Shown piece by piece: positions 1 through 7,717 of a DNA stretch of 7,995 nt (position 1 is its first letter; every line of letters starts with the position of its first letter). The notes beneath the pieces are model-generated. The model searched no databases and was not told the origin of the DNA. It saw only the letters and a list, made by a program, of their open reading frames with translations. The DNA is from a virus (Duplodnaviria; Heunggongvirae; Uroviricota; Caudoviricetes), in the IMG/VR virus record IMGVR_UViG_2671181134_000012; one strand, written 5' to 3'. The translations under genes were made by a program, and so were the position numbers.

Positions 1-1239
1 ATGAGCAGGGCAATTCATAGACTTAGCGACACTCTTTTACGAAAATTAAGCGGATCACCAACCACAAAAAACACCTTTTTTAATGATGGTGGCAACCTTA
101 GCGTAAGGCATTCAACCAATGGCCTGTTAACCTGGTATTTCACTTACAGGGCCGGAACAGGCAGGAAGGTAGCCCCTGAACGTCTGAGGCTGGGAAATTA
201 TCCAGATTTGAGCCTGAAAGCAGCCAGGGAAAAAGCGTCGCAGTGTCGCGCCTGGCTTGCTGAGGGTAAAAATCCACGCCATGAGCTTAATCACACCGTA
301 CAGGAAGCGTTATCACCTGTTACGGTTAAGGAAGCGCTCACTTACTGGCTTGAATCGTACGCGAAGGAAAAGCGCACAGATTACGAATCTCTGAAAAGCC
401 GGATCAATACACACATAATCAGCCATATTGGTGCTATGCCGCTGGAAAAATGCGAGCTACGCCACTGGCTGACCTGTTTTGATCAGCTTGCTAAGCGTAA
501 TCCGGTATCAGCAGGATTTTTGTTACAGGTATGCAAGCAGGCGCTTAAGTACTGCCGCAAACGACGCTACGCAATTACCAACGTTCTAGATGATATGGTT
601 GTAGGTGATGTTGGGAAAAAAGCAGAAATAAGCGAGCGCATACTAACAAACAAGGAGCTTGGGGAATTACTCCGCGCCCTGGATGAAAAAATTTACCCAC
701 CGTACTACAGCGCCCTGATTCGCCTCCTGATTGTCTTCGGATGTCGTACCACTGAGCTAAGACGCTCTGAGGTCCAGGAATGGGATTTTAAAGAAATGCT
801 CTGGACCGTGCCGAAAGAACATAGCAAAACGAAGGTAGCAATATTCAGGCCAATACCGGAAGCGATCTTGCCGTTCGTAACGAAGCTGGTGGAGCAGAAC
901 AGGCACACGGGATTATTGCTCGGAGAACTGAAAGGGCAATCATCCGTATCAGAGTACGGAAGAACGGCACACAGACGTATTAATCAAGCCCCCTGGACGT
1001 TGCACGACATCCGGCACACGTTTACAACGATGCTGAACGATTTAGGCGTGGATCCTCATGTAGTGGAGCAGCTAACCGCGCACCAGTTGCCAGGAATGCA
1101 ACGAGTCTATAATCACTCCCGTTATCTTGATGCAAAACGTGACGCTCTTAATCTATGGGTTGAGCGTCTCGAGCTTCTCCAGAACAATGATGAAAAAATC
1201 GTTGTTATGACCCCGCGAATTTACTCCCAAAATTCTTGA
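1..1239 (+). CDS. int: Tyrosine site-specific integrase, P4-like (N-terminal arm-binding domain plus catalytic domain)
   Basis: 412-aa ORF starting at ATG 1. The N-terminal region (LSDTLLRKLSG...WYFTYR...GNYPDLSLKAAREKA) resembles the DUF4102-type arm-binding domain of P4-family integrases. The C-terminal region carries tyrosine-recombinase motifs (GCRTTELRRSE, HDIRHTF, and a candidate catalytic Tyr in RVYNHSRY). Family assignment is by recognition, not a search. Confidence 0.92.
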   Translation: MSRAIHRLSDTLLRKLSGSPTTKNTFFNDGGNLSVRHSTNGLLTWYFTYRAGTGRKVAPERLRLGNYPDLSLKAAREKASQCRAWLAEGKNPRHELNHTVQEALSPVTVKEALTYWLESYAKEKRTDYESLKSRINTHIISHIGAMPLEKCELRHWLTCFDQLAKRNPVSAGFLLQVCKQALKYCRKRRYAITNVLDDMVVGDVGKKAEISERILTNKELGELLRALDEKIYPPYYSALIRLLIVFGCRTTELRRSEVQEWDFKEMLWTVPKEHSKTKVAIFRPIPEAILPFVTKLVEQNRHTGLLLGELKGQSSVSEYGRTAHRRINQAPWTLHDIRHTFTTMLNDLGVDPHVVEQLTAHQLPGMQRVYNHSRYLDAKRDALNLWVERLELLQNNDEKIVVMTPRIYSQNS

Positions 1240-1648: not shown

Positions 1649-1858
1649 ATGCGCGAAATAAATGAAGATCGTGTAATCCGCGAAAAAGAATGCAGAGAGC
1701 TAACAGGCGTTTGCCGCACAACTCGTTACGAGATGGAAAAGCAGGGCCGCTTCCCCTCACGTATCAGTCTCGGCGGTCGTTCTGTTGGCTGGGTTAAGTC
1801 TGAGGTTATGGAATGGGTTAAAAGCAGAAATCGTATTAATTCAGGTAAGGCAGCGTAG
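1649..1858 (+). CDS. alpA: AlpA-family phage transcriptional regulator / excisionase-like protein
   Basis: 69-aa ORF with AGGA 6 nt upstream of ATG 1649. The sequence (CRELTGVCRTTRYEMEKQGRFPSRISLGGRSVGWVKSEVMEWVKSR) matches the recalled AlpA hallmark pattern (FP..I.LG.R.VGW...EV..W). The position directly after a P4-type int is the usual one. Confidence 0.88.
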   Translation: MREINEDRVIREKECRELTGVCRTTRYEMEKQGRFPSRISLGGRSVGWVKSEVMEWVKSRNRINSGKAA

Positions 1859-2885: not shown

Positions 2886-3185
2886 ATGAGAACTTATTTA
2901 TCTGGCTTGACTGCCAGCGGTTATGCACACCCCAAAATTATCCCCGGCGCTATTTATCTGGATAAGAACGGTAACAGAGTAACGGTAAAAGAACTGATGT
3001 TTGACCGTGTGTATTTTATCCGTGATGGCTATTCATTTCATAGTTCGCTGAACGTGGAGATCTTTATTAGCAGATTCAGGCGGGAAATCCCGCTTTCCAG
3101 AAATAACCATGTGTCATGTATCGATGTTGATAAAAAACTACAGGAACTGAAAAACATGATTGCCGCGTGGAGAGAGCAGAAATGA
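2886..3185 (+). CDS. Hypothetical protein (99 aa), third gene of the cassette, directly upstream of the primase gene
   Basis: ATG 2886 with GGGGA 9 nt upstream. The stop TGA 3183-3185 overlaps the primase ATG 3182 as ATGA, a classic coupling arrangement. No recognised motif. Confidence 0.6.
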   Translation: MRTYLSGLTASGYAHPKIIPGAIYLDKNGNRVTVKELMFDRVYFIRDGYSFHSSLNVEIFISRFRREIPLSRNNHVSCIDVDKKLQELKNMIAAWREQK

Positions 3186-4999
3186 AAAAAGCGCCAAATT
3201 TAAAACACCAGCCACGTGACAAAATGACGGAAGTCATCATTTTTGCGGGTAGTGATGCGTGGGCACATGCGAAGCAGTGGCAGGAACAGGACGGGCGACT
3301 GGCTGGCGATAACGTGCCACCTGTCTGGCTTGGAGAGCAACAACTTGCCGAACTGGACAACCTGCAAATCGTACCGGACGGACGCTATCGCGTGCGTCTC
3401 TATCAGGCGGGGTTATTGAGTCCGGGGCTTGTTAATACCATCGGGCAGAAACTGGCAGTGGCAGGTGTCAGGGATGCTGATTATTACCCTGAAGGAATGC
3501 ACAGCCAGAAACGGGAGAACTGGCGCGAATATCTGGAACGTGAACGGGCAGAGCAGGCGGAAAAGAAAAAGGTAGTTGAACTGCCTGTAAAGAAAAAAGA
3601 GCGGGTAAAAGACGATAACGCTTCATCACTGGCGCTTAACCAGATGGGAGCAAGTCAACGCGGCGAAGTTCTCCTGGCACATTATGGCGGTGAACTGGCG
3701 ATTCATGCTGACTCTGACACTGTTCACTATTACAACGGCGTTGTATGGGAGCCAGTACAGGATAAAGAATTACAGCGAGCTATGGCACAGATTTTCATTG
3801 ATGCGGAGATCAGCTATTCGCAGAACGCCATTAAATCGGCGGTCGATACCATGAAGTTAAGTTTGCCTGTAATGGGGAATACAGCCCGTAACCTGATTGG
3901 ATTCAGTAACGGTGTTTTTGATACCCGGACAGGCGATTTTCGGGAGCATAACAAAAACGACTGGTTGTTAATTGCCAGTGAATTACCTTTCAGCCCACCA
4001 GCAGAGGGGGAAACGCTGGCAACACATGCGCCGAATTTCTGGAAGTGGTTACGCCGTTCGGTGGCTGAGAATGACCGCAAGGCGGATCGCGTACTGGCTG
4101 CATTATTCATGGTGCTGGCGAACCGGTACGACTGGCAGTTATTCATTGAGGTAACAGGTCCAGGGGGAAGTGGTAAAAGCGTGATGGCGGAGATTTGCAC
4201 CATGCTGGCGGGTAAGGCCAACACGGTATCGGCAAGCATGAAGGCGCTGGAAGATGCCAGGGAACGCGCGTTAGTGGTTGGCTTTTCGCTGATTATCATG
4301 CCGGATATGACCCGTTACGCTGGTGATGGCGCAGGAATTAAGGCCATTACAGGCGGTGACAAGGTGGCAATCGACCCGAAGCATAAAGCCCCCTACTCAA
4401 CACGCATTCAGGCGGTAGTGTTGGCGGTGAACAATAACGCCATGTCATTCAGTGACCGCAGCGGGGGGATTTCACGTCGTCGGGTGATATTCAATTTTTC
4501 GGAGGTTGTACCGGAAAACGAACGCGACCCCATGCTGGCAGAAAAAATAGAAGGAGAGCTGGCGGTTGTGATTCGCCACCTGCTTACTCGTTTTTCTGAC
4601 CAGGACGAAGCTAAACGCCTGCTGTATGAGCAGCAGAAATCAGAAGAAGCTCTGGTGATAAAACGCGAGGGCGATTCGCTGGTGGACTTCTGCGGCTATC
4701 TCATGTCGTCGATAATGTGTGATGGTCTGTTAGTGGGTAATGCCGAAATTATTCCGTTCAGTCCGCGCAGGTATCTTTATCACGCCTATCTGGCATATAT
4801 GAGGGCACACGGATTCGGTAAACCTGTAACACTGACGCGCTTCGGTAAAGATATGCCGGGGGCAATGGCGGAATATGGCAGGGAGTATATGAAACGGAAA
4901 ACGAAGCACGGTTTGCGTTCAAATGTGACCCTGACAGAGGATTCAGAAGACTGGATGCCATCATGTGCATCGGTCACAAATGACGATGGAAAAAATTAA
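3182..4999 (+). CDS. Replication initiator: P4 alpha-like primase/helicase (D5_N-like region plus SF3 helicase NTPase domain)
   Basis: 605-aa ORF from ATG 3182 (the track's 3167 start is GTG). It carries Walker A (TGPGGSGKS), a hydrophobic stretch ending in Asp (LVVGFSLIIMPDM) as Walker B, and the SF3 motif C asparagines (LAVNNNAMSF). This architecture matches the P4-family phage/plasmid primase C-terminal domain. A TGTTCACC iteron array lies immediately downstream. The N-terminal ~150 aa are not assigned. Confidence 0.85.
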   Translation: MKKAPNLKHQPRDKMTEVIIFAGSDAWAHAKQWQEQDGRLAGDNVPPVWLGEQQLAELDNLQIVPDGRYRVRLYQAGLLSPGLVNTIGQKLAVAGVRDADYYPEGMHSQKRENWREYLERERAEQAEKKKVVELPVKKKERVKDDNASSLALNQMGASQRGEVLLAHYGGELAIHADSDTVHYYNGVVWEPVQDKELQRAMAQIFIDAEISYSQNAIKSAVDTMKLSLPVMGNTARNLIGFSNGVFDTRTGDFREHNKNDWLLIASELPFSPPAEGETLATHAPNFWKWLRRSVAENDRKADRVLAALFMVLANRYDWQLFIEVTGPGGSGKSVMAEICTMLAGKANTVSASMKALEDARERALVVGFSLIIMPDMTRYAGDGAGIKAITGGDKVAIDPKHKAPYSTRIQAVVLAVNNNAMSFSDRSGGISRRRVIFNFSEVVPENERDPMLAEKIEGELAVVIRHLLTRFSDQDEAKRLLYEQQKSEEALVIKREGDSLVDFCGYLMSSIMCDGLLVGNAEIIPFSPRRYLYHAYLAYMRAHGFGKPVTLTRFGKDMPGAMAEYGREYMKRKTKHGLRSNVTLTEDSEDWMPSCASVTNDDGKN

Positions 5000-5010
5000 A
5001 CTTATGGAAT

Positions 5011-5241
5011 AACTGTTCACCACTGTTCACCCTGCAATAAATGTCTTTTATATCAGTATATTATAGGGTGAACAGTTATTTATGAACTGTTCACCAAACT
5101 ATTCACTGTTCACCTTTTTGATTCTTTATTGAGCTTTAAGGGTGAACAGTGGTGAACAGTTGGTGAATAGTTTTTGTGAAACTATTCACCCCTTAACATC
5201 ATGAATAAAAAGGGAAAATTGCAAAAGGTGAACAGGTGAAG
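5011..5241. repeat. Iteron array / candidate replication origin: at least 8 perfect and several degenerate copies of TGTTCACC (GGTGAACA) in both orientations
   Basis: Perfect copies on + at 5013-5021, 5023-5031, 5087-5095 and 5106-5114; on - at 5067-5075, 5141-5149, 5151-5159 and 5227-5235. Degenerate copies at 5162-5172 and 5180-5190. The 22-mer AACTGTTCACCACTGTTCACCC (5011-5032) is the exact reverse complement of 5140-5161. There are two inverted pairs with 7-nt spacers (5067-5095 and 5162-5190) and an AT-rich stretch at 5033-5066. Confidence 0.8.
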
Positions 5242-5286: not shown

Positions 5287-5526
5287 GTGACAACGAAGCA
5301 CGCCAAAAAACCACAATCTCACGCCCTTGATTTGACAGAACACTGGCTGAGGGTGGCGATAAAAATCATCGACCGCAACGCCGGGGAAGGATACGCGAAA
5401 GCACATCCCGAACTGATAAGCGCATTCATGACCACGACGGCGGCAAACTTTGCCACGCTGACAGAACGGGAGATTGCCGAAGCGGAACAGGTAACAACCA
5501 TCAACGTTAAAAGCGCTGGAGAATAA
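5287..5526 (+). CDS. Hypothetical protein (79 aa, GTG start)
   Basis: GTG 5287 with GAGG 8 nt upstream, followed by an intrinsic terminator. The overlapping minus-strand ORFs have Cys/Ser-rich antisense-like composition, so the + strand is preferred. Confidence 0.5.
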   Translation: MTTKHAKKPQSHALDLTEHWLRVAIKIIDRNAGEGYAKAHPELISAFMTTTAANFATLTEREIAEAEQVTTINVKSAGE

Positions 5527-5544
5527 CCGAAGTAGTGAACACAT

Positions 5545-5568
5545 AGCCGGAGCAATCCGGCTTTTTTT
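5545..5568 (+). terminator. Rho-independent terminator (AGCCGG agcaat CCGGCT followed by TTTTTTT)
   Basis: 6-bp GC-rich stem, 6-nt loop and a 7-T run, read directly, 19 nt after the stop of the 79-aa ORF. Confidence 0.7.
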
Positions 5569-5602
5569 CGATCTCGCATATCTTAAAAAATGGTTGATTG
5601 AT

Positions 5603-5608
5603 TATAAT
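5603..5608 (+). promoter_or_regulatory. Candidate -10 hexamer TATAAT for the downstream small-ORF / terS / capsid operon
   Basis: Consensus TATAAT about 50 nt upstream of GTG 5657, with an A-tract upstream. No convincing -35 was found, so this is tentative. Confidence 0.3.
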
Positions 5609-5656
5609 CTATCGAAAATACTGATTATTAGATGATAAGCATCAGGAGGAAACAAA

Positions 5657-5851
5657 GTGGAACAGATAAAGCAAAGCGCTACCGTGATGATTGATCACGA
5701 GATCCTAAACGAGCTTAAAAAACTTCAATTCGATGTTATTCGCCGGATGAATGAAGCTGGTATATACGGCAGAGCCGCCACGCCAACAGTAGGCCATCTT
5801 GCTCGCGTGCTGTTACGCGAACGCCTGGGCATTGCAACAGGTGAGGAATAA
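5657..5851 (+). CDS. Hypothetical small protein (64 aa, GTG start), possibly DNA-binding
   Basis: Strong SD (AGGAGG, 5643-5648) 8 nt upstream of GTG 5657. The N-terminal segment (SATVMIDHEILNELKKL) has a strand-then-helix pattern that could be RHH-like, but this is weak. Confidence 0.5.
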   Translation: MEQIKQSATVMIDHEILNELKKLQFDVIRRMNEAGIYGRAATPTVGHLARVLLRERLGIATGEE

Positions 5852-5853
5852 CA

Positions 5854-6015
5854 ATGGCTATCACAGAACGCGAGGCAAGCATCATTAAAGCCATTGGCGA
5901 GGAAACAAGAGACACGATAGCGCCATTAATGGAAAAGATCGCAGAGCTTGAGAGACGAATAAACAAGCTGAGTGATGAAGTTGAAGGCCTGATCTCGTTA
6001 CTCGGTGAGCAATGA
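5854..6015 (+). CDS. Hypothetical small protein (53 aa), predicted helical / coiled-coil; absent from the supplied ORF track
   Basis: ATG 5854, 2 nt after the stop of the upstream ORF, with GAGGAA just upstream. The translation (MAITEREASIIKAIGEETRDTIAPLMEKIAELERRINKLSDEVEGLISLLGEQ) has heptad-like hydrophobic spacing. It is a short ORF, so coding status is uncertain. Confidence 0.4.
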   Translation: MAITEREASIIKAIGEETRDTIAPLMEKIAELERRINKLSDEVEGLISLLGEQ

Positions 6016-6070
6016 CAGGGGGGGAGTGTTCCGGCCGGAAAGTCGATCGCCCTGGACACCGCCCCCCGTC
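6016..6070. other. GC-rich structured element: G7 run (6018-6024), 12-bp palindrome TTCCGGCCGGAA (6029-6040), CGATCG (6044-6049), C6 run (6062-6067)
   Basis: Read directly. The G-run and C-run could pair to enclose the palindrome. It sits between the 53-aa ORF and terS; a cos/pac-type or regulatory role is possible but unproven. Confidence 0.4.
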
Positions 6071-6095
6071 TCATTCGTAGAAAATTTTGCTTTTC

Positions 6096-6121
6096 AAAAA
6101 AGTTACACGAAAAGTTACACC
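6096..6121 (+). repeat. Two direct copies of AAAAGTTACAC with 12-bp period in the terS leader
   Basis: AGTTACAC at 6101-6108 and 6113-6120, non-coding, 22 nt upstream of terS ATG 6143. Confidence 0.6.
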
Positions 6122-6142
6122 CCCTCAAAACGAGGTTTTTGC

Positions 6143-6631
6143 ATGGCATTAACGACCAAAAAAAAGCGGTTTGCTGATGCGTTATCAAGGGGCGCAAATC
6201 CCACGGAAGCCGCTATACATGCGGGATACAGCGAAAAGACCGCAAGGGTTAAAGGCTGGCAGCTATCCAATGATCCTGAGGTGAAAAAGTATCTTAAGGC
6301 TGTAACTTCTGATGTAACTTTTCAGGTTACAAAACCGAAAAAAGTTACAAAGAAAGTTACCGAAAAAGTTACACCGGAACGGGCATCAATTAACACCATT
6401 GAGATGATGGATAACGGCCTACCCGACCCCATCAAAGCAATGGGCAGGATACTGATTGACAACATGGACACAGATCCAAAACTGGCTTTAGATGCCGCGT
6501 TTAAGCTGGCCCAGTTCACCCACCGCAAGATCGGCAGCATTGGGAAAAAAGAGGTTAAAAAACTCAATGCCGCTAGTGTCTCCTCAAATCGGTTCCCCAT
6601 CCCTAAGCCACCAACAGGCTTAAGACACTGA
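6143..6631 (+). CDS. terS: Terminase small subunit (SF6 G1P-like, Terminase_2-type N-terminal HTH)
   Basis: ATG 6143 with GAGG 6 nt upstream. The N-terminus (KKKRFADALSRGANPTEAAIHAGYSEKTARVKGWQLSNDPEVKKYL) closely resembles the SF6-like TerS DNA-binding domain (KQERFIEEY...NATKAAIAAGYS...A). A Lys-rich repeat linker (KKVTKKVTEKVT) follows. Confidence 0.82.
   Translation: MALTTKKKRFADALSRGANPTEAAIHAGYSEKTARVKGWQLSNDPEVKKYLKAVTSDVTFQVTKPKKVTKKVTEKVTPERASINTIEMMDNGLPDPIKAMGRILIDNMDTDPKLALDAAFKLAQFTHRKIGSIGKKEVKKLNAASVSSNRFPIPKPPTGLRH
6300..6375. repeat. 12-bp periodic AGTTAC array inside terS: inverted copies GTAACT at 6302 and 6314, direct copies GGTTAC 6325 and AGTTAC at 6343, 6355 and 6367
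   Basis: Read directly. The period equals that of the upstream leader copies. It is encoded as an xxVT peptide repeat (AVTSDVTFQVTKPKKVTKKVTEKVTP). Confidence 0.6.
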
Positions 6632-6642
6632 GGTATCGAACT

Positions 6643-6804
6643 ATGAGCGAATACATCACAGACCCTATTGATGTACTCACGGAAATCATGAACGACAAGC
6701 AGCAGCCAACCGAAATACGGTTACAGGCTGCCGCTGTTCTGATGCCATATTTTCACGAAACCCTAACCCCATGTTACCAGGAGGAAGAAGATGATGATTT
6801 CTAA
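6643..6804 (+). CDS. Hypothetical small protein (53 aa) with acidic C-terminus (QEEEDDDF); absent from the supplied ORF track
   Basis: ATG 6643 with GAGG 9 nt upstream. Its 3' end overlaps the capsid gene start by 14 nt. Short ORF, uncertain. Confidence 0.4.
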   Translation: MSEYITDPIDVLTEIMNDKQQPTEIRLQAAAVLMPYFHETLTPCYQEEEDDDF

Positions 6805-7717
6805 AAACATGAAAGGCGTGTCGGCAGTTCGCGCCGCCAGCGTGCTTACATCGTGTAAATTCAGCCATGCAGACGCAATTGAAATGACGAAAAAAAATGA
6901 TCCGGCAGTATCGAAATTTCTTGAAAAATCCATCGTCAACAGAATGACTACGGATAACATGCCGTCGCTGGTGGCAGAGCCGATAGTAAGAGAGCTTGGC
7001 GAGTATATTTTTTCGCAGTCTGTACCAGGCAAGCTAATCAGCAGCGCGCTGAATCTTCCTTTTGGCGCAAAATTGCAGTCAATATCAGGCAAGGGTAGTA
7101 AATGGCTTAAAGAAGCCGAAGAAATCCCAATCAAAGAGGGAGAAGTAAACGAAAGCGCGCTAAAACTGTGCAAACTCGGCGCTATTGTGATGCTGAATAA
7201 CGAGCTAATCAAATTTAGCACCCCTGGTACCAATTCAGCGATCAGAGACTTAATCACATCGGAATCGGTGAAAGAAATAGATAAAAAATTTCTTTCCAGT
7301 GACCAGGAGGTGGCTGGCGTATCCCCTGAGGGTGTGCTTAATGGTGCTGATGAGGCCGAAAACTTCATAGAGCTTTTCAAAAAGCACATAGCGAACGGTA
7401 ACACGCTTTCCACGTCGTCGCTAATCTTGCCCGTAGAAAACGCCTTACAGCTTACTGATGCTGAGTTCTGGCAGATAGAGCTTTTGAGAATACCGGTAAT
7501 TGTGAGCGAACAGGCTGATCGCATGATGCTGATAGACGCTCAAAAGCTGATTATTAACGTTGAAGCCACGGTTATAACCCCAACTGATGAGGCGGTAATA
7601 AAAACCGAATCAGGGGCGGTTAGCCTTTTCCAGAATGACGCTACAGCGTTCAGGGCAATCACCTATTGCGGATGGCAAAAACTCGATAAGGCCGTCACCG
7701 TTCTGGCGAAAAGCTGA
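6791..7717 (+). CDS. Putative major capsid protein, HK97-fold (Phage_capsid-like), 308 aa
   Basis: AGGAGG (6779-6784) 6 nt upstream of ATG 6791. The central region (KLGAIVMLNNELIKFSTPG...IDKKFLSSDQEVAGVSPEGVLNGADEAENF) aligns by eye with the HK97 gp5 region (IAHWVQASRQVMDDAPML...GLALKEEGQLLNGDGTGDNLEG). Its size fits a capsid core without a delta domain. Not confirmed by any search. Confidence 0.6.
   Translation: MMISKNMKGVSAVRAASVLTSCKFSHADAIEMTKKNDPAVSKFLEKSIVNRMTTDNMPSLVAEPIVRELGEYIFSQSVPGKLISSALNLPFGAKLQSISGKGSKWLKEAEEIPIKEGEVNESALKLCKLGAIVMLNNELIKFSTPGTNSAIRDLITSESVKEIDKKFLSSDQEVAGVSPEGVLNGADEAENFIELFKKHIANGNTLSTSSLILPVENALQLTDAEFWQIELLRIPVIVSEQADRMMLIDAQKLIINVEATVITPTDEAVIKTESGAVSLFQNDATAFRAITYCGWQKLDKAVTVLAKS

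Follow-up and report, generated by a model that had tools for sequence, protein, structure and literature searches.

Introduction

In phage P1, the pac site consists of hexamer repeats within pacA, and in SPP1 and SF6 it is arranged as pacL-pacC-pacR. Among satellites, the pac-type Staphylococcus aureus pathogenicity islands (SaPIs) encode a small terminase (TerS_S) that retargets the large terminase (TerL) of the helper, the recognition site lying at or near the satellite terS. In cos systems, the specificity of packaging lies in cosB, and cosN can be common to several elements (PMC9026076; PMC6739421). Escherichia coli cos-type phage-inducible chromosomal islands (PICIs) such as EcCICFT073 use Rpp: the helper cosN is kept, cosB is different, and packaging is redirected to the island (PMC6092414; PMC6739421). 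The cos site of HK97, with the HNH protein gp74, has a TerS site at +15 to +29 and a 10-nt 3′ overhang (PMC11331095). Here we analyzed a 7,995-nucleotide stretch of a Caudoviricetes virus (IMG/VR record IMGVR_UViG_2671181134_000012; this whole stretch is called the window below), which carries the terS gene of a PICI-type satellite with AAAGTTAC(AC) repeats in front of and inside the gene. We consider it likely, from the comparisons below, that these repeats are cosB-like "R" elements, bound by TerS, that set the packaging specificity of the satellite's cos site. A literature search of incomplete coverage returned neither these repeats nor any TerS-type cos PICI.

The locus shares features with each of these systems. 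As in lambda (cosN followed by the cosB elements R3-I1-R2-R1, with gpNu1 as the winged helix-turn-helix (HTH) protein), a cut site, here putative, is followed within tens of bp by short TerS-specific motifs in both orientations, just before terS. However, the proteins are unrelated, the satellite TerS being SF6/Terminase_2-like with predicted TerL and HNH partners and a 3′ overhang, and the satellite differs further from lambda in its 8-11 bp motifs, their 12-bp tandem spacing and the location of most copies within the terS coding sequence. Unlike in lambda, no site for integration host factor (IHF) was recognized in the satellite cos region. PICIs that use Rpp have the same backbone as the satellite (int, alpA, pri-rep, origin iterons and a capsid homologue), but Rpp heterodimerizes with the phage TerS, whereas the satellite encodes a full-length TerS homologue. 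Their helpers are lambda or phi80, while those of the satellite are likely HNH/HK97-style lambdoid phages of the long-tailed Shiga toxin (Stx) type (Stx1a, Stx2c and Stx2a), and, unlike in the Rpp PICIs, the cosB-like motifs of the satellite can be read directly as repeats.

The pac SaPIs have a TerS of their own, as does the satellite; SaPI1-type packaging is headful, whereas the cos core and the HNH-associated relatives of the satellite indicate cos packaging. In SPP1/SF6 and P1, as in the satellite, short repeats form two clusters on either side of a region of action and overlap the TerS gene in its 5′ part, and SF6 G1P has the same DNA-binding domain fold as the satellite TerS. These phages, however, package by headful and cut between the clusters, while the putative cut of the satellite lies upstream of both. 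The separation of the satellite clusters, ~200-270 bp, is reminiscent of SPP1 pacL/pacR and of lambda R3...R2-R1. HK97 resembles the relatives of the satellite in its HNH-cos-terS-terL order, its 10-nt 3′ overhang and an A-tract a short way past the cut, but its TerS lacks an HTH domain and has a single 15-bp site where the satellite family has a repeat array. We rejected HK97 as a sequence relative, as its cos and TerS are unrelated and only the gene order and the 10-nt 3′ overhang are alike.

A periodic repeat array in the terS leader and linker

The hexamer AGTTAC occurs eight times in the window, where 2.5 copies are expected, and seven of the eight fall within 6101-6372; none of 200 dinucleotide shuffles reached eight copies. 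Extended to AGTTAC[AC], the motif is found twice in the leader, five times in the linker and never in the remaining ~7.3 kb. The initial annotation had described two copies in the leader and six more inside terS, in both orientations and at one 12-bp spacing. The leader pair and the two orientations stand, whereas the intragenic set consists of five AGTTAC and one GGTTAC, and the 12-bp spacing inside terS has a single exception, an 18-bp step between 6326 and 6344. The proposed xxVT peptide also proved right, since the intragenic copies translate as a Val-Thr repeat, AVTSDVTFQVTKPKKVTKKVTEKVT.

The leader copies lie 242 bp (12 × 20 + 2) from the linker copies and hence in another reading phase. 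The terS gene starts at the ATG at 6143, not at 6144, and its leader is non-coding: RefSeq begins the gene at ATG, and the homologues begin with MALTT or MLTT. The length of the poly-G tract in front of it, 7 to 11 G depending on the E. coli copy, would also put any frame entering from upstream out of register. Among these E. coli copies, the leader repeats (6098-6120) are invariant. In the linker array, natural alleles carry one, two or three KKVT units in 12-bp steps (window positions 6343-6372 compared with L175 and P0003/P0004), a change in copy number that is consistent with slippage.

A conserved cos core upstream of the repeats

When positions 6010-6145 were compared by blastn with 50,697 phage records, the only matches were long-tailed Stx1a, Stx2c and Stx2a phages. 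The match covers only 6018-6096, at ~80% identity, and ends where the repeats begin. These phages have the gene order HNH-terS-terL and a TerS 47% identical to that of the satellite. According to PhageTerm, the Stx1 phage Lys8385Vzw packages by cos and has CGCCCCCCCT as its 10-nt 3′ cohesive end (PMC7946995); the GenBank record of this phage begins directly after the decamer. The homologous decamer of the window, CGCCCCCCGT, marks the putative cut site of the element (6060-6069). Aligned leaders share the pattern GGGGGGG...CTGGACACCGCCCCCC(C/G)TCTCA...AGAAAA or, in its fuller form, a G-run, (C)TGGACACCGCCCCCC(C/G)TCTCA and AGAAAA(A)AT.

The initial annotation had placed the repeats in a headful pac site, for which TerS would read the repeats in terS, an imprecise cut would fall nearby, and serial headful packaging would leave permuted ends. 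Recognition repeats in or next to terS are present, as pac expects, and resemble P1 pac, SPP1 pacL/pacR and P22 pac; the DNA-binding domain of TerS is also like that of SF6 and SPP1, both of them pac phages. However, repeats in or near terS do not discriminate pac from cos because cosB shares this feature. Where pac would go with no fixed ends and no HNH partner, complete phages with a TerS of this family carry HNH directly upstream in the HK97-style order HNH-terS-terL-protease/capsid-portal, and one member of the family has been typed as cos with a defined 10-nt 3′ overhang. In addition, the homologous decamer and a strongly conserved 20-nt core are found 30 bp upstream of the repeats, while a ~9 kb satellite packaged by headful in a ~50 kb head needs no conserved cut-site core. 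A pac site is quite unlikely on this evidence. Given the HNH/TerL context, the cos-typed relative and CGCCCCCCGT 30 bp upstream, the repeats behave like cosB, that is, TerS-binding R elements by cosN, and the motif copies (two in the leader and five or six in the gene) stand in both orientations beside the putative cosN and terS, as in a cos array. From the sequence comparisons, cos rather than pac packaging is quite likely.

The poly-G tract at the left edge of this region is 7, 10 or 11 G long among E. coli copies that are 96-99% identical (the window, L298 and L299). It may be a slippage hot spot or a homopolymer prone to sequencing error, and it may matter for cos function.

The repeats are conserved as DNA

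TerS homologues formed only 13 clusters in an index of 5.8 billion proteins, and DNA was fetched for the diverged ones. Four lineages with TerS proteins 55-62% identical were compared: an HNH-bearing E. coli island (L002/L174), Hafnia (L004, a complete Hafnia alvei prophage with the order HNH-terS-terL-protease/capsid-portal), Salmonella (L006) and Logan metagenomic contigs (L008, L172 and L173). In all four, AAAAGTTACAC is kept in the non-coding leader at −31 to −36 from the start codon, with the exception of L173, where the leader copy reads −70 and the called gene starts at an internal Met. The linker holds two copies 12 bp apart in all the relatives examined (one in L173), together with one or two inverted GTAACT copies (degenerate in L002/L174).

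In the codon alignment, every Val-Thr of the linker is written either GTT-AC(A/C), preceded by AAA or GAA, or GTA-ACT, whereas the codons on either side are free to change; in the linker frame, Val-Thr results from either orientation of the motif. Four-fold sites within the motifs were identical in 138 of 156 pairwise comparisons versus 437 of 1127 (39%, close to saturation) at other conserved four-fold sites, a test that is partly circular for the third base of Val because the motif itself defined the motif columns. The codon alignment, the non-coding leader copies and the co-variation across classes are non-circular support. The claim that the repeat matters at the DNA level is thereby strengthened: the initial annotation had named free codon variation and the loss of the leader copies in relatives as the findings that would speak against it, and the relatives instead keep the leader copies and do not vary the repeat codons freely.

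These comparisons bear directly on the possibility that (K/E)KVT is simply a low-complexity peptide linker made by replication slippage, with the leader copies as a coincidence or a by-product of local duplication. The number of linker copies does vary from one to three between alleles, as slippage predicts, and the region is a predicted disordered linker. However, the leader copies occupy the same position in every lineage although they code for nothing and lie out of phase, the motif codons are fixed where other synonymous sites are near saturation, and the inverted copies give the same V-T through GTA-ACT. Moreover, the GTTAAAG-class motif described below codes K-L-K, T-L-T and K-V-K in different frames. 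The comparative data largely refute a peptide repeat without a DNA role, which we regard as extremely unlikely.

The related island in E. coli GCA_034224985.1 (L002, 6206-7332) has an HNH gene of its own (162 aa) upstream of terS, with a capsid-like gene further on; satellites of this type thus sometimes come with their own HNH partner. Its ~200-bp leader is covered by six copies of the GTTAC motif, five direct and one inverted.

The motif changes with the TerS class

An IMG/VR scan for the cos core returned at least 120 stretches; with the other loci, at least 98 unique cos-terS regions of phages or satellites have the 20-nt core in common. After this same core, the leader motif depends on the class of TerS. 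In the AAAAGTTACAC class (HTH ...RVKG[W/C/Y]QL), leaders hold 1-6 copies and linkers 2-5. The AAAAGTTAAAG class (HTH AGYEEKTASQQGSKL and similar) has 2-3 tandem leader copies spaced by 12-13 bp and linker copies at +158, +184 and ~+200, of which the first codes E-K-L-K in another frame, the second, an inverted CTTTAAC, codes T-L-T, and the third codes K-V-K. The GTTAAC classes (HTH ...G S(Q/R)L) have either five copies, in the Stx leader, or two, which overlap or precede the start codon; some carry one linker copy, at +162 or +234, and the Stx phages none. Finally, in the TGTAAACA/TGTTAACA class, a single pair stands at the start codon, and the linker has a GTTTAC...GTAAAC pair (L179). Counts of each motif across the other classes were zero, and RVKG is followed by W, C or Y in the GTTAC class but by S in the GTTAAC classes. 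One core thus precedes at least four classes of motif, each with its own HTH sequence class, as expected for the TerS-specific motif of a cosB. Judged from these classes, what leader and linker share is the DNA motif, not the peptide. The leader and linker motifs change together across TerS classes while the peptide differs. The repeats are the best candidate for the element's own packaging-recognition site, as first proposed.

The same switch is seen within a single genome. In IMG genome 2923307698, contig L256 carries a near-identical copy of the satellite, and a complete HNH-TerS-TerL-protease/capsid-portal module is found on contig L233. The two agree in all 20 nt of the cos core, including CGCCCCCCGT (the G variant of the overhang), but the core is followed by CAGTTAACATGTTAACTGG in the phage and by AAAAGTTACACGAAAAGTTACAC in the satellite (GTTAAC versus GTTAC). 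As the cores are identical and the arrays differ in one genome, the reader of the array must be encoded separately by each element, and terS is the only adjacent, homologous but diverged DNA-binding gene in both.

This bears on whether another protein might bind the motif, be it the product of the ~50-aa open reading frame (ORF) after terS, a host factor (for instance IHF), or one of the helper proteins HNH and TerL. An ORF of this size resembling the TerS core does follow terS in the window and in several relatives, and HNH and TerL act at cos. However, the small ORF has no DNA-binding domain match, the motif is unlike the IHF consensus, and the motif class tracks the HTH sequence of TerS. 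Since a phage and a satellite within one cell have the helper HNH and TerL in common but differ in their motifs, we judge a different binder to be very unlikely.

The co-variation also weighs on a regulatory explanation, in which the repeats are an operator for TerS or another regulator of the terS operon, or fold in the mRNA into a hairpin that alters its translation or stability. The ATG follows the leader copies at a distance of 22-45 nt, and 6302-6322 can pair with 6340-6360 in a hairpin, the region folding somewhat better than shuffled sequences (z = −2.2). This hairpin, however, is an automatic by-product of the two motif orientations and leaves the tandem direct copies of the leader unexplained; no sigma-70-like promoter was found in 5500-6900, and an Rfam search gave no match. 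Moreover, phages have this region at the cos junction, within their late region; the motif changes with the HTH class of TerS; and the array begins where the similarity to the helper cos ends. A purely regulatory function is unlikely, while autoregulation by TerS may coexist with a packaging role.

In the Stx phages, CAGTTAACATGTTAACTGG stands where the window has AAAAGTTACAC, followed by three more GTTAAC in the 290-bp leader. Across the long-tailed Stx phages (L011 2300-2425, Stx2a phage 1447; at least 43 IMG/VR loci), this leader has five GTTAAC-core sites, including one inverted pair. By its position between the cos core and terS, this array is probably their cosB. We know of no annotation of this five-site array.

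Among the INPHARED phages, none has a GTTAC-class TerS (the best matches are 41-47% identical), and hence no sequenced helper of this class can be named. A search of genome contigs with the single TerS protein gave no match, and alignment-based scans of genome and viral contigs returned mostly distant matches to the HTH domain only, with few close relatives.

TerS is predicted to be an SF6/SPP1-type small terminase

The TerS of the window matches PF03592 (Terminase_2, E = 1.4e-10). AlphaFold2 predicts a four-helix N-terminal domain (aa 1-56, pLDDT 80-88), a disordered linker (aa 57-84, pLDDT below 50) and a C-terminal helical hairpin (pLDDT ~80). In Foldseek, the N-terminal domain superposes on the DNA-binding domain of SF6 G1P (4zc3; TM 0.86, rmsd 1.5 Å, 30% identity), with TM values of 0.82-0.86 for 4zc3/2cmp; the likeness to SF6 came from this fold search, a sequence search of the PDB giving marginal matches only. 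The predicted model is thus that of an SF6/SPP1-type small terminase, with an HTH domain followed by a predicted oligomerization core. The direct repeats sit in the codons of the predicted disordered linker, which tolerates one to three copies in natural alleles. Between the satellite and Stx-phage proteins, identity is 63% in the HTH domain, 18% in the linker and 58% in the C-terminal core. We infer from these values, which are consistent with it, a conserved interface with the helper TerL and a diverged site preference.

Proposed packaging mechanism

If the repeats are cosB-like elements, the island would replicate from its own origin during induction of a helper. The putative cosN, with its 10-nt 3′ overhang CGCCCCCCGT, would be common to the satellite and to co-resident HK97-style lambdoid prophages organized as HNH-cos-terS-terL, and the array after it would differ, being GTTAC in the satellite and GTTAAC in the phage. 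Oligomers of the satellite TerS would bind both leader copies and the five or six in the linker codons ~200-270 bp further on, two clusters that flank the HTH-coding DNA. TerS would then recruit the helper TerL and HNH to nick the satellite cosN, and satellite concatemers would be packaged from cosN towards terS. A candidate helper with an identical cos core (L233) resides with a near-identical copy of the satellite in one genome.

Several points weigh against this reading of the repeats. The co-variation between motif and TerS rests on a handful of independent classes, and the motif is invariant within its class, so that the evidence within a class is one of conservation and not of compensation. 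In the class that is most abundant among the matches listed (the Stx phages, at least 43 loci), all five GTTAAC sites fall in the long leader and the linker has none, so that copies inside the gene are dispensable. Nor is GTTAC specificity particular to satellites, since a GTTAC-type TerS is also found in the complete Hafnia prophage. The cut site was placed by ~80%-identity homology to a single published PhageTerm result. Finally, TerS binding round its own start codon could serve autoregulation beside packaging or instead of it.

Going one step further, we tentatively suggest, as a possibility at somewhat less than even chance, that terS and cos together form a self-addressed, portable specificity cassette of ~400 bp. 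Its motifs would lie in the leader and in the linker codons of terS itself, so that protein and site would co-evolve and move together; a single-base change of the site core from GTTAAC to GTTAC, with a matching change in the HTH, would keep the helper's exact cosN while diverting the helper TerL and HNH. Such a cassette would be a TerS-based, cos-type counterpart of the Rpp-mediated redirection in Gram-negative PICIs, one of which we know no earlier description.

Compared with what is known, the locus differs in the combination of a full-length satellite TerS with probable cos/HNH packaging, the placement of most proposed sites in the linker codons of TerS itself, and a specificity code readable across classes. 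The finding is not surprising in principle, yet it is unusually clean and experimentally tractable. If true, it would provide a directly readable code of packaging specificity, made up of the cos core and a GTTAxx motif particular to each class, for a large set of HNH-type cos phages of enterobacteria, covering the long-tailed Stx1a, Stx2c and Stx2a phages and the PICI satellites beside them in Shiga toxin-producing E. coli (STEC). It would explain how TerS-encoding Gram-negative PICIs are packaged, where so far only the Rpp and capsid-forming PICI (cf-PICI) routes have been worked out, and would predict which prophage mobilizes which island, a matter relevant to island mobilization in STEC. 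It would also offer a compact cassette (~6010-6400) for transducible plasmids with orthogonal specificities and a natural example of binding sites inside the coding sequence of their own reader, visible as suppressed synonymous change.

The element and its neighboring genes

An island region 100% identical to the whole window is present in E. coli ERL06-2442, where the island is ~9 kb long and inserted between cspD/yljB and clpS. The same region was found in 220 of 5426 complete E. coli genomes; in the sampled matches, the carriers are chiefly STEC serotypes such as O157:H7, O111 and O121. A paper on the prophage pool of O157 Sakai held no information on the island. Besides the features of Table 1, the window encodes a DUF4222 protein (Pfam/PHROG) and, between the iteron block and terS, three small ORFs.

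Table 1 Features of the window, with positions counted from its first nucleotide.
Feature	Position	Strand	Remarks
Leader repeats, two AAAAGTTACAC, exact 12-bp tandem, direct	6098-6108, 6110-6120	+	Non-coding; proposed cosB-like TerS sites
Two inverted copies, GTAACT, 12 bp apart (6302-6307 and 6314-6319)	6302-6321	-	Minus strand reads (G/A)AAGTTAC; code V-T as GTA-ACT
Degenerate direct copy, GGTTACA (imperfect GGTTAC, 6325-6330)	6325-6331	+	Also in the L002/L174 lineage
Three direct copies, AAAGTTAC(A/C), 12 bp apart (6341-6348, 6353-6360, 6365-6372)	6340-6374	+	Linker codons KKVT KKVT EKVT
Conserved cos core, GGACACCGCCCCCCGTCTCA	6054-6073	+	Holds the putative cosN
Putative 10-nt 3′ cohesive end, CGCCCCCCGT (putative cosN)	6060-6069	+	Homology to the Stx1 phage end; 30 bp upstream of the first repeat
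A/T-tract spacer, TTCGTAGAAAATTTTGCTTTTCAA, putative cut site to first repeat	6074-6097	+	AGAAAA(A)AT conserved family-wide
Poly-G tract, left edge of the conserved cos region	6018-6024	+	G-run in all relatives and Stx phages
terS, small terminase	6143-6631	+	PF03592, phrog_641
Tyrosine integrase (int)	1-1239		Pfam/PHROG matches
AlpA regulator (alpA)	1649-1858		Pfam/PHROG matches
D5-type primase-helicase (pri-rep)	3167-4999		Pfam/PHROG matches
GGTGAACAGT iterons, at least 9 copies, both orientations	5007-5237		Directly after pri-rep
53-aa ORF	6643-6804		Directly after terS
308-aa HK97-fold capsid-like protein gene	6791-7717

By its gene content, the element is a PICI-type satellite, with int, alpA, pri-rep and an iteron origin, terS and a capsid-like gene and without terL; this agrees with the gene set that defines proteobacterial PICIs (SatelliteFinder, PMC10085698; PMC6092414). 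The whole island of ERL06-2442 holds no terL, portal, tail or lysis genes. The cf-PICI class, for which an own protease, portal, connectors, hnh and terL are expected, was rejected, as the island has only terS and the capsid-like gene.

The iteron block includes a 23-nt perfect inverted repeat (5011-5033 with 5139-5161) and is presumably, from its sequence and place, the replication origin of the island. The AGTTAC repeats were considered as origin iterons and rejected, the iterons being a separate family 1.1 kb away; the AGTTAC repeats also accompany terS in phages without the island's replicon, which argues against such a role.

The capsid-like protein is distantly homologous (22% identity, E = 1e-19) to the capsid half (aa 291-625) of the protease-capsid fusion encoded by the candidate helper L233. 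By analogy with Ccm of SaPIbov5, it could redirect capsid size. The first ~40 residues of the 53-aa ORF after terS resemble the TerS oligomerization core (phrog_641 positions 89-126; DPxxxLxxIMxD...RLxAA), and an ORF of ~50 aa is found at the same place in relatives, including between terS and terL in the phage-like contig L172 (533-682). From this resemblance, it could be a paralogue of the TerS core acting as a modulator or decoy.

Another 53-aa, coiled-coil-like ORF (5854-6015) lies upstream of the cos region and bears the name "antitermination protein NusG" in one RefSeq record (NZ_CM142926.1), apparently through an annotation artifact, and "hypothetical" in the others. A C-terminal peptide like that of this ORF (...LISLLGE, followed by the stop) precedes the cos region in the Salmonella and Logan relatives.

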